A stretch of DNA of 49,897 nt from a virus. Position numbers and translations under genes: made by a program. Positions within the stretch are counted from its first letter, which is position 1, and every line of letters starts with the position of its first letter. Positions 2,687 through 5,768 of this stretch are shown here, one piece after another. The notes under the pieces are model-generated. The model did not search any database. It was not told the DNA's origin and saw only the letters and a list, made by a program, of their open reading frames with translations. The stretch lies in UHGV virus genome UHGV-0143838. The stretch is one strand, 5' to 3'.

Positions 2687-3115
2687 ATGGGAAGAACATT
2701 TAGAGAAAAAACAATCAACATATTACAAATAATCACTCTGTTGACATTCTATTGGCTAATTTATAATTTTTGTCTCGACCACCTGTATGCTAATGCCTCA
2801 AAAGGCCCTGCAAGCATTATTACTGATACATATTTTCCAGCTGCATTATTAGCTCATGTTGGGCTATTGTTTCTTTTCATCCCATACTATTTAATGTGGA
2901 AGGCGAAGGAGAAATTTAACTGGAGAGGAATCTTCAATGCTCATCGAAACTATCCTTTCACAGTCTTTATTAGTTATACTTCAGCTACCATAACATATAT
3001 GATAGCTGATAAAGCATCTTTCTATGATTCTGGTATAAATACTCTATACTTGATTCAAATTATTGCCTTTATTTTTGTTACGATTATTTATCTGCATTCT
3101 TCCAACAAAGATTAA
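2687..3115 (+). CDS. hypothetical integral membrane protein
   Basis: ORF 142 aa with multiple hydrophobic helices; 3' end overlaps the convergent 3044-4210 ORF. Confidence 0.4.
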   Translation: MGRTFREKTINILQIITLLTFYWLIYNFCLDHLYANASKGPASIITDTYFPAALLAHVGLLFLFIPYYLMWKAKEKFNWRGIFNAHRNYPFTVFISYTSATITYMIADKASFYDSGINTLYLIQIIAFIFVTIIYLHSSNKD

Positions 3116-4210
3116 TATAATACCATATACGACAATAACAGCTAGAACATAAAATATTATACCTACCCGTGAAATATCGGAATTAAACCATTTGAACATT
3201 TTCATTAAAGAATAAACAACTCGATCAAGGGACGATGTTTTCTCCCTTACCTCCATACATGACAGCTTGCACTCACTGTCATCTATCTGGTTAAGAATAC
3301 TCATTGCCTCATTTCGCTGTCCTTTTCCCAAGAAATGTCTGGCTAATATAAGTCGTTTGTCCACAGAAGATATATCATCCTGAATTAATCCATATAATAT
3401 ATGGATATCTTTTTGACTCAGTTGTTTCTTGTTTTCTCTATCTTCATAGTAAAAATCGAGGACGAGTGGGTTGTCTGACATACTTTTATCGATAGATTTG
3501 ACAACAGCATCCCATCGATGACTGTCCATATCGGCTAAAGATAATATAGGGTATAACTTCTCAATGACACGTTCCCCTACAGGAGAATAATAAAATCTAT
3601 GATGTGTTTTTTTATAAAATGAGTCTGATATATTGGCTATAACACCTGTATTCTCATTTTCTGTAGTTTCCCAATAAAATCTCATTCCATATTTTTCACT
3701 AATAAATGATAGAAAAGCATGACGTGGAGCATAAACTATTTCTAACTTTTTACTGAATGCTCTTGCAGCATCAAACATAAGATATACGTTCAGATCACAG
3801 TCAGAAAAGTGATTAGCATAAGCCTTAGCTACTGTAGCTGATGGTTTATAATAAAAGTTAGCTCCTAATATTTTGTTTGCACAGTCCAAGAAATTTTCAG
3901 TAGTATCATCAATCCTACATGTATCTTTTACTTTCTTTAAAAAATTATTTATAGCCCCATATGCTTTACGCGCTTCGTTAGAATTAATGATACCATTTTG
4001 CTCATCCATCCTGACGAGGCGATGAGTCAGGTTTAATGGGTCATAGTCCGCAAATACATCCGGGGTATGTTCAAATCGTTCGGCACGCGTTGCACTTTTA
4101 TCTTTGGTCAGAGTTATAGATACGAATGAGATAACAAGCACAGGAAGAATAATTAACGCCACAGGCATTATTAATTTTCGCAAAGTTAATAATTTGATAC
4201 GCAATAACAT
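3044..4210 (-). CDS. hypothetical membrane-anchored protein (N- and C-terminal TM segments)
   Basis: ORF 388 aa; N-terminal hydrophobic anchor (PVALIILPVLVISFVSI) and C-terminal TM (VGIIFYVLAVIVVYGIILIFVG); no family recognised. Confidence 0.5.
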   Translation of the reverse strand: MLLRIKLLTLRKLIMPVALIILPVLVISFVSITLTKDKSATRAERFEHTPDVFADYDPLNLTHRLVRMDEQNGIINSNEARKAYGAINNFLKKVKDTCRIDDTTENFLDCANKILGANFYYKPSATVAKAYANHFSDCDLNVYLMFDAARAFSKKLEIVYAPRHAFLSFISEKYGMRFYWETTENENTGVIANISDSFYKKTHHRFYYSPVGERVIEKLYPILSLADMDSHRWDAVVKSIDKSMSDNPLVLDFYYEDRENKKQLSQKDIHILYGLIQDDISSVDKRLILARHFLGKGQRNEAMSILNQIDDSECKLSCMEVREKTSSLDRVVYSLMKMFKWFNSDISRVGIIFYVLAVIVVYGIILIFVGRMQINNRNKNKGNNLNQV

Positions 4211-4330
4211 TTAATCATCCACTGATAATAGAAAAGCAAATGTTAACACTAAATCAATCAAGCAGTAACTTATAATTGGCTTAACTACGAATCTTTACAT
4301 TGTTATTACCCATCCAAGTAACTCATTAAA

Positions 4331-4350
4331 TTAGTTAGTTAGTTAGTTAG
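4331..4350. repeat. tetranucleotide microsatellite (TTAG)5
   Basis: Five perfect tandem TTAG units read directly; intergenic, about 120 bp upstream of the 3044-4210 start codon. Confidence 0.9.
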
Positions 4351-4511
4351 TTTTATTTTGAAAATTAATTTTAGATTTACTAACTCTACAAACTTGTATA
4401 CTTATCAATAAAATAGAATGTGCATAACAAAAACAAAATACAAACAGCAAAAATTTAATAACAAATAGATGAATATTATGCATTCTCATATAATCTAATA
4501 CAGATCTAAGC

Positions 4512-5768
4512 TTAGTTAGTTGCTGCCTGCGTTGATTTTGTGGCATTGATTTTCAGATTATTCAACATCACCTTATCGACAGGTTGTAGTTGCTGTCCTA
4601 ATAGGGCTGCTAATAAAATATTTGTGTCTTCTGTTCTTTCTATTAGAAGCATCTGTAATCTTAAATCAATGGCCTGCATTCTTGCCTGCTCATGTGCGGT
4701 TTCTTTTTCATCTGTACTGCTGATCTTGACCTGCCATGCATCAGCACCAGTAGTATCCGCATAGCGAGAATAGATCTCATATCTCAACATTTCCCATTCC
4801 GAAGGTTTAGACGGGAACTCTGCTCCGGGGAATAATGTCGCATACTTGGTTTTCACAGACGCATCAGTCCACGCCTGACTTGCTCCTGCTGTAGAACCAA
4901 GTCCTGAGCCGATATTTACCCCTCTTGAGTTTACTGATACATCACCAGATTTCTTTATTGCCAGAATAGAATCAACAGCATTAGTTCCCGCTGTGCTTCT
5001 GGCAACAAAACTTGAGAATGCTGACAGGTATTCGCGTCCTTCTTTCGTATCTTCAAGACTCCTGTCGTTTAGCTGCTGTAGCGGTAAATTACCAATCAGA
5101 TTTCGCTTAGCAGCATCAGCCACTTTCATCTGTTTAACATCATAAGATTGGTTTGAAACTTTATTCCCCTGAGCATCAGATATGGATAACGGTGGTGTGG
5201 TGAGTGAGGTAGCAGATTTATCTTTATCAGCATATGCACCAATAGAACTACATCCACCTCTGTTGTATTTCACATCCTCGTCAGAACAGACTTCAATTGA
5301 GACTCGGCCCATCACGTTATTTTTAGCCTCATTTATACCGGTGCTCGCTCCCGTAAACATTTTCACACTATTTTCAGCTAAAGCAGCTTTAGCTGAGCTT
5401 GTGTTTGATCCTGCCGACCCTCTACCTCCTGCTGCTGTAGCTTCCTCACAAGCATTAGCATCAGGAATTCGCTTAAGGATATTTTGCATTCTTTGCTCCT
5501 GAATAGCTTGGTTTGCATTGCTTATAACAGAGTTCTTTTGATTCTCATTAGCAGTAATATTAGCCTGTGCAAGTTTGTCATTCATTGAGACTAATGTCTC
5601 AATCATTCCATTTCCCATAGATTGAGGGTATGCCCCCATTACGTAAGGTGTCAATACTTCTTCCGTGACGGGCCAGACAGCAAAAGCTGTATTTGAATAC
5701 AGAACAGAAAAACACAAAATCGAAGTCGCTGCTATTCTTTTTATTTTGAAATTACCATGACTCATCAC
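4512..5768 (-). CDS. hypothetical secreted protein (Sec signal peptide)
   Basis: ORF 418 aa; N-terminal signal-like sequence ending AFA; RBS AAGGGAG precedes ATG at 5765; Ala/Ser/Gly/Asn-rich mature region. Confidence 0.55.
   Translation of the reverse strand: MMSHGNFKIKRIAATSILCFSVLYSNTAFAVWPVTEEVLTPYVMGAYPQSMGNGMIETLVSMNDKLAQANITANENQKNSVISNANQAIQEQRMQNILKRIPDANACEEATAAGGRGSAGSNTSSAKAALAENSVKMFTGASTGINEAKNNVMGRVSIEVCSDEDVKYNRGGCSSIGAYADKDKSATSLTTPPLSISDAQGNKVSNQSYDVKQMKVADAAKRNLIGNLPLQQLNDRSLEDTKEGREYLSAFSSFVARSTAGTNAVDSILAIKKSGDVSVNSRGVNIGSGLGSTAGASQAWTDASVKTKYATLFPGAEFPSKPSEWEMLRYEIYSRYADTTGADAWQVKISSTDEKETAHEQARMQAIDLRLQMLLIERTEDTNILLAALLGQQLQPVDKVMLNNLKINATKSTQAATN

Follow-up and report, generated by a model that had tools for sequence, protein, structure and literature searches.

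A hypermutable (TTAG)n microsatellite in a chromosomal island of E. coli and its possible influence on the downstream gene

A perfect tetranucleotide repeat upstream of a gene for a predicted membrane-anchored protein raises two questions: does the number of its units change, and, if it does, what follows for the gene? E. coli is the textbook case of a bacterium that is not known to make use of long simple sequence repeats; invertible DNA and Dam methylation are the basis of the phase variation described in this species. We considered both questions for a TTAG repeat in UHGV virus genome UHGV-0143838, the 49,897-nucleotide stretch of DNA that is called the window below. A sequence-only reading of the window had proposed that units are gained and lost by slipped-strand mispairing and that promoter spacing is altered as a consequence.

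The tract and its genomic setting

The five whole TTAG units that had been noted at 4331-4350 are present, and an extra half unit (TT) carries the tract to position 4352. It is located 120 bp from the ATG of the gene at 3044-4210, in agreement with the earlier estimate, and the end of a traW-like gene is about 160 bp away on the other side. The tract is inside the 301-bp spacer (4211-4511) between two minus-strand genes. The features of the locus are:

3044-4210, minus strand: downstream gene, encoding a 388-aa protein with N- and C-terminal membrane helices and a predicted periplasmic transglutaminase/papain-like Cys138-His164 core plus TPR-like helices
4211-4330, minus strand: gene-proximal 120 bp from the tract to the ATG, with about 105 bp conserved in repeat-free alleles and the ribosome-binding region
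4269-4240, minus strand: best proximal promoter candidate, GTTACT-18-TGtTAACAT (weak; weight-matrix scan)
4331-4352, no strand assigned: (TTAG)5.5 microsatellite, TTAGTTAGTTAGTTAGTTAGTT, which is (CTAA)n on the strand of both flanking genes (sequence, TRF, shuffles)
4353-4511, minus strand: distal spacer from the traW-like stop codon to the tract, 20% G+C, poorly conserved, with no intrinsic terminator
4464-4435, minus strand: distal promoter candidate, TTGTTA-18-TATTTT (weak; weight-matrix scan)
4512-4521, no strand assigned: second, short repeat, (TTAG)2.5, which overlaps the stop codon of the traW-like gene (gene strand: ...ACT AAC TAA), then the palindrome CTAAGCTTAG
4512-5765, minus strand: upstream traW-like gene, encoding a 417-aa signal-peptide protein with a weak Pfam TraW-like match; a GTG start at 5768 is possible (418 aa)
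8818-11532: DotA/TraY (TIGR04346, E = 1e-124)

TRF describes the tract as a repeat of period 4 with 5.5 copies, 100% matches and 0 indels. When up to two mismatches were allowed, the (TTAG)5 20-mer was found in none of 100 dinucleotide-preserving shuffles of the window; the three matches in the real window represent one tract in shifted registers. The tract contains stop codons in all three frames of both strands and therefore cannot be coding. Phase variation by frameshifting within an ORF, as in translational SSRs, is ruled out, since the tract is intergenic and all six frames have stops. A small ORF at 4343-4546 (67 aa) is regarded as spurious: its start is within the traW-like 3' end, in a different frame of the same strand, and it ends simply where the repeat supplies the first in-frame TAA. 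At window 4504-4521, the stop codon of the traW-like gene is embedded in (CTAA)2.5, after which comes the palindrome. This short repeat (4512-4521) shares its unit with the hypervariable tract 160 bp away and showed no variation in size among the loci read.

The 388-aa protein is one of 24 members of an orphan family, and every member with a named source is from Enterobacterales. The transglutaminase-like motif Cys138/His164 is invariant in the family, and there are conserved cysteine pairs. Searches of Pfam, NCBIfam and PDB profiles produced no match, and only the fold comparison was informative: the predicted fold is menin-like, i.e. a transglutaminase core with TPR. A related-locus search of genome contigs with the 388-aa protein returned no relative, and the homologous loci were obtained via contigs encoding homologous proteins. 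One Salmonella homologue (P0007, 55% identical) resides in a different context without traW. In part of the RefSeq records, the product of the upstream gene carries the name 'conjugal transfer protein TraW family'. A hydrophobic ORF of 142 aa on the plus strand (2687-3115) converges on the 3' end of the 388-aa gene with a 72-bp overlap; certain assemblies call it as a gene (142 or 143 aa, in loci of E. coli and Salmonella), and it matched no family.

The low-G+C region from position 1 to about 21.7 kb of the window is part of an island of about 33 kb, whose boundary is marked by a tyrosine integrase adjoining zinT. The island encodes pilV (shufflon tip adhesin), a BfpA-like pilin, traD, a MobQ relaxase, the traW-like protein and DotA/TraY, and also a restriction endonuclease, repL and two hns-family genes. 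Since most I-type transfer genes are missing, the island looks mobilizable or decayed rather than self-transmissible, and it may be an element mobilised by IncI-type plasmids. The island region is also seen in a second locus extract (L167, 1-11800). The commoner form of the island is that of E. coli MP1 (NZ_CP139039.1; extract L176, 2900-3010). In islands of this MP1 type, the entire module that otherwise separates the traW-like stop codon from a 156-aa gene is absent, and with it both the 388-aa gene and the tract; a terminator-like hairpin follows immediately after traW.

A tailed prophage with G+C content of 44-59% (window positions about 22000-48300) abuts the low-G+C island. Its genes encode terminase, portal, HK97-type capsid, sheath and tube, baseplate and tail-fibre proteins. 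The arrangement of prophage and island in FDAARGOS_1259 is the same as in the window.

Variation and origin of the tract

Comparison of the repeat number across isolates, which had been suggested as a check, was carried out for 28 E. coli sequences (each genome taken once, the window included). There are 19 sizes among them, from 5 to 72 units with a median of 15, corresponding to tracts of 20-288 bp. None of the tracts has an imperfect unit or an interruption, and all sequences agree at both junctions. The window allele with its 5 units is the shortest found. Direct reading gave 72 units in FDAARGOS_1259, 24 units in FDAARGOS_1260, and 48, 47, 30, 26, 20, 16, 16, 15, 15, 12, 11, 10, 9 and 8 units in other complete genomes; three further genomes were sized by length arithmetic (8, 10 and 15 units). 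Assemblies with exactly the window's proteins have 31, 11, 34, 15 and 24, 11, 12, 10, 13 units, and 14 units were observed in one metagenome contig.

A 2.8-kb query spanning the locus had at least a partial match in 172 of 5,426 complete genomes, with query coverage of at least 80% in 20 of them. A 411-bp query across the spacer reached this coverage in 21 genomes, and the spacer is of the repeat type in 19 of the 21. The matched lengths differ from the query by exact multiples of 4. The plasmid collection contains a single matching record, with only the traW-like half, and thus the locus is chromosomal. Short-read assemblies end at the tract or scaffold over it with Ns. With flanks that do not differ and lengths that change only by multiples of 4, the tract bears out the proposed change of unit number by slipped-strand mispairing.

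The speed of this process can be compared with that of point mutation. Haplotypes of the flanks were defined in 20 sequences over 2,380 bp (1,280 bp on the left side of the tract, 1,100 bp on the right). There are seven haplotypes, 1-35 substitutions apart. Sequences of a single haplotype, with 0 substitutions between them, have tracts of very different sizes: 72/24/5; 48/47/15/31/34; 26/20/8/15/16; 9/12/16; and 10/11 units. A3 (48 units) and A26 (47 units), which have the same haplotype, differ by one unit. In FDAARGOS_1259 and FDAARGOS_1260, 24.4 kb of the adjacent core chromosome, from zinT to fliK, match at full self-score with no mismatch; the next best of the 5,426 genomes over these 24.4 kb is 99.3% identical. 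Since this backbone is identical, the two genomes represent one clone, and their tracts are 48 units apart.

On the evidence of these alleles, TTAG units are gained and lost whole, far faster than the flanks acquire point mutations. The tract has perfect head-to-tail copies beyond chance, whole-unit differences between identical flanks, and changes within a clone, as is characteristic of the SSR class. These comparisons identify it as a hypermutable tetranucleotide microsatellite that changes by slipped-strand mispairing, and the locus is among the most length-variable simple repeats one could expect in E. coli. MutS recognises loops of four bases poorly, a property that would go some way to account for such instability. 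At tetranucleotide loci of Haemophilus influenzae, instability reportedly depends on the length of the tract (De Bolle et al. 2000).

Several relatives of the locus have no repeat. E. coli SCU-106 and 2013C-3181 have the same gene pair with a spacer that is 75% identical and contains TAATGCGTTTAATAATTAATTT at the site of the tract. In Salmonella enterica loci of three allele groups (P0003, P0004, P0005; proteins 80-82% identical), this site is occupied by unrelated AT-rich sequence. Since these sister alleles from E. coli and Salmonella keep the gene pair without the repeat, the tract is derived. In alignments of the repeat-free alleles, about 105 bp adjoining the ATG are well conserved in both E. 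coli and Salmonella, including the strings TAATAACAATGTAAAGATT..., GTGTTAACATTT... and TTTTCT.TTATCA.TGGA.GATTAAATG. Across the locus, divergence is highest in the distal spacer, and the tract is positioned exactly at the distal edge of the conserved proximal block. The tract arose once in, and is confined to, one lineage of the E. coli chromosomal mobile island, yet it is old enough to be common to haplotypes that are 1.5% apart.

Possible effects of tract length on the 388-aa gene

The spacer contains few recognisable regulatory signals. A scan of positions 4000-4800 with consensus patterns found no promoter on the minus strand, and no intrinsic terminator was found by the consensus scan in 4211-4511. 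The position-weight scan produced only weak sigma-70 candidates, with scores of about 5 bits, on either side of the tract. As the scans give no candidates or weak ones only, the promoter cannot be placed from sequence. The element TGTTAACAT of the proximal candidate is invariant in all alleles aligned (SCU-106/2013C-3181 and Salmonella). An Rfam search of 3900-4800 produced nothing except a chance microRNA match far below the threshold.

The RNA from traW to the ATG was folded with 0 to 72 units. The minimum free energy is always -55.6 kcal/mol, and the accessibility of the ribosome-binding site is the same. The repeat stays unpaired in the fold, and its unpaired probability grows with the number of units. 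A repeat hairpin in the leader, of the hmw type, was considered and rejected, as the fold energy is identical for 0-72 units. The base composition does change: the best 78-nt window of the intercistronic RNA contains 7C/8G with no units, 8C/6G with 5 units, 12C/1G with 10 units, and 20C/0G with 20 or more units. A search for nadA-type operators flanking the tract found only a 9-nt inverted repeat (4300-4308 and 4456-4464). It is the sole perfect one bracketing the tract, and by a hand estimate it is expected by chance in AT-rich DNA.

Our main reading, to which we assign a probability of about one half, is that the variable-length tract tunes, rather than toggles, the downstream 388-aa gene. 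A graded, length-dependent effect is favoured because the tract measures 20-288 bp, is distal to the 105-bp conserved block, and there is no terminator between the genes. This position, 120 bp before the ATG and beyond the conserved block, in front of a gene whose product is predicted to be membrane-anchored, would suit a rheostat of the nadA, uspA2 or hmw type. The tract would then serve as an untranslatable, unstructured spacer of 20-288 bp adjoining the conserved promoter-proximal block.

Two routes may be considered. At the DNA level, a change in the number of units would alter how far distal elements or read-through transcription are from the core promoter, and their phase on the helix relative to it, in the manner of nadA and uspA2. 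The RNA-level route is the one that we slightly favour; the relevant properties of (CUAA)n would be that it is G-free, unpaired, and has a C every 4 nt. Rho loads onto untranslated, unstructured stretches of about 80 nt in which C exceeds G. With about 10-20 units or more, the intercistronic RNA, in which G otherwise exceeds C, could become a Rho-loading site, and longer tracts would progressively uncouple the 388-aa gene from read-through from traW. The suggestion of Rho loading rests on the composition of the RNA. The most specific form of this model, that the locus is an E. coli contingency locus in which the island-borne tract acts as a stochastic rheostat, its length setting the Rho-dependent uncoupling, for a transglutaminase-like protein linked to I-type conjugation genes, is considerably more doubtful.

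The closest positional analogue is the AGAT tract of uspA2 in Moraxella catarrhalis, which is located 132 bp upstream of the ORF, has 13-18 units across strains and causes graded changes of the mRNA level (PMC7302503). Both loci have a non-coding, strain-variable tetranucleotide repeat at a similar distance (132 bp and 120 bp) from a gene for an envelope protein. They differ in species, motif and gene family; the range of sizes is far larger here (5-72), and the effect on expression has been measured for uspA2. In Neisseria meningitidis, the number of TAAA units upstream of nadA shifts the spacing of distal promoter elements rather than that of the -35 and -10 boxes (PMC2791445). The likeness consists in an AT-rich tetranucleotide tract upstream of the core promoter, which is a candidate in our case. 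However, nadA requires NadR operators flanking the tract and IHF, and flanking operators are not recognisable here. The hmw1A/hmw2A genes of H. influenzae have a transcribed 7-bp repeat in the 5'-UTR, and their expression is inversely proportional to the repeat number (PMC12721329). This repeat is also intergenic and resembles the RNA-level model proposed above. However, the hmw system depends on a long hairpin in which the repeats pair with a G-rich arm and which RNase III cleaves, whereas (CUAA)n is unpaired. The lic1, mod and hgp loci of H. influenzae also have perfect tetranucleotide tracts changing in whole-unit steps, but those tracts are within ORFs and act by frameshift switching, whereas the tract considered here is intergenic and contains stops.

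Neutrality is nearly as likely as the tuning model. The tract would then be an expansion-prone microsatellite in an unconstrained AT-rich spacer of horizontally acquired DNA, with no meaningful effect and under no selection; we consider this a serious possibility, at somewhat less than even odds. The sizes are spread from 5 to 72 units without preferred classes, as expected if length is unselected, and the sister alleles carry the same genes with no tract, so that the 388-aa gene does not need it. Arrays of eight or more TTAG units occur in at least 120 other species, and those of 8-214 units are present in many unrelated bacteria among the matches listed, so the motif may simply expand easily; a second enterobacterial tract appears to have grown from a (CTAA)2 seed. 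Neutrality is further favoured by the distal spacer, where conservation is lower than anywhere else in the locus, and by an RNA fold and accessibility of the ribosome-binding site that are independent of the number of units; it speaks against tuning that the promoter candidates are weak and fall on both sides of the tract. On the other hand, at least five perfect units are retained in 28 of the 28 sequences, which include seven haplotypes up to 35 SNPs apart per 2.4 kb. The insertion of up to 288 bp directly upstream of a conserved promoter-proximal block, in a region without a terminator, makes neutrality with respect to expression unlikely, and the positional analogues uspA2, nadA and hmw do modulate expression.

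Other explanations have far lower probabilities. A role at the DNA level apart from expression of the neighbours, as an array of IS5 targets, a protein-binding array or a recombination hotspot of the island, is improbable. It would agree with CTAA/TTAG being among the listed target tetranucleotides of IS5, which prefers easily melted AT-rich DNA (PMC5493358), and with the fact that the module absent from MP1-type islands starts just past the traW-like stop codon, which bears (CTAA)2.5. However, inspection of the 28 sequences revealed no IS within the tract, none of the known binding motifs was recognised, and Rfam had no match. Still less probable is a classical ON/OFF switch, in which the units would alter the spacing of the -35 and -10 boxes, or an equally strict spacing, in the promoter of the 388-aa gene. 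The tract is upstream of the gene, on the correct side for a promoter element, but alleles extend from 20-22 bp to 288 bp, and none fits a spacer of 16-18 bp. There are no -35- or -10-like hexamers in the tract or at its junctions, as checked by direct reading and the weight-matrix scan, and the tract, 120 bp away from the ATG, falls beyond the stretch that the repeat-free alleles conserve. As a tract of 20-288 bp cannot separate the -35 and -10 boxes and lies outside the 105-bp conserved block, altered promoter spacing in the classical sense, the mechanism suggested by the sequence-only reading, is not supported. Since the size range is wide and apparently unconstrained, such a switch fits worse than a graded or a neutral effect. 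Finally, the variation could be a sequencing or assembly artefact of long-read or hybrid assemblies, given that short-read assemblies fail at the tract and the five units of the window are the smallest value. This we find hardly credible, as the differences are exact multiples of 4, the units are perfect, and the junctions are identical in more than 20 independent complete genomes from different laboratories and platforms; moreover, a de Bruijn collapse would be expected to leave at least one k-mer rather than 22 bp.

Other TTAG arrays and implications

A scan of one genome per species found (TTAG)n arrays with eight or more units at no fewer than 120 loci. Among the matches listed, they are mostly from Bacteroidota, namely Flavobacterium, Chryseobacterium, Sphingobacterium and Pedobacter, and often are at contig ends; the highest number of units among these matches is 214, in Pedobacter arcticus. 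The listed matches also include Colwellia, Gilliamella and Salmonella diarizonae. The latter, an unrelated (CTAA)16 in Salmonella enterica subsp. diarizonae CCUG 30040T (NZ_VXJV01000018.1; extract L060, 6005-6068), precedes a kfrA-like DNA-binding gene by 62 bp; the backbone is of the plasmid type, with parA-like, KfrC and Fic neighbours. It looks like an independent expansion from a two-unit seed, since at that site the related plasmids of E. coli show no more than an imperfect, A/C-rich stretch containing (CTAA)2. A long tract of this motif would be a concentrated array of IS5 sites, and a 4-bp target duplication is a conceivable seed of the repeat.

No description of a long TTAG or CTAA tract in E. 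coli was found in the open-access literature, including searches for the literal strings TTAGTTAGTTAG and CTAACTAACTAA, which is not proof of novelty. The literature matches of CTAACTAACTAA are, to judge by their titles, unrelated eukaryotic or cloning work, possibly primers or engineered stop cassettes. The MLVA loci known from E. coli have units of at least 6 bp. Copy-number polymorphism of tandem repeats between E. coli strains is known from VNTR/MLVA loci and is used for typing (PMC7015867). According to the same review, tetranucleotide repeats in E. coli K-12 have at most four units, compared to 5-72 here, in line with the earlier remark that this mechanism is uncommon in enterobacteria (PMC7015867). 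The keyword-matched passages of a review of phase variation bring up E. coli solely in connection with fimbrial inversion and the Dam-dependent switching of pap (PMC11868660). Repeat-mediated variation is a well-known kind of system, and it is the host that makes this tract unusual.

A natural tract of 5-72 units that changes within a clone is a ready system for studying the expansion and contraction of microsatellites in the best-understood background of replication and repair. It is also a very fine-grained marker for lineages carrying the island, and a warning that short-read assemblies break or have gaps at such a site. If its length tunes the gene, repeat-based bet-hedging extends to mobile elements of E. 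coli, and the putative orphan envelope enzyme acquires a function to test. If the Rho rheostat is true, this would be the first natural phase or level variation by a tetranucleotide repeat described in E. coli, and a Rho-loading site built of repeats would be a new RNA-level route for repeat-mediated control.
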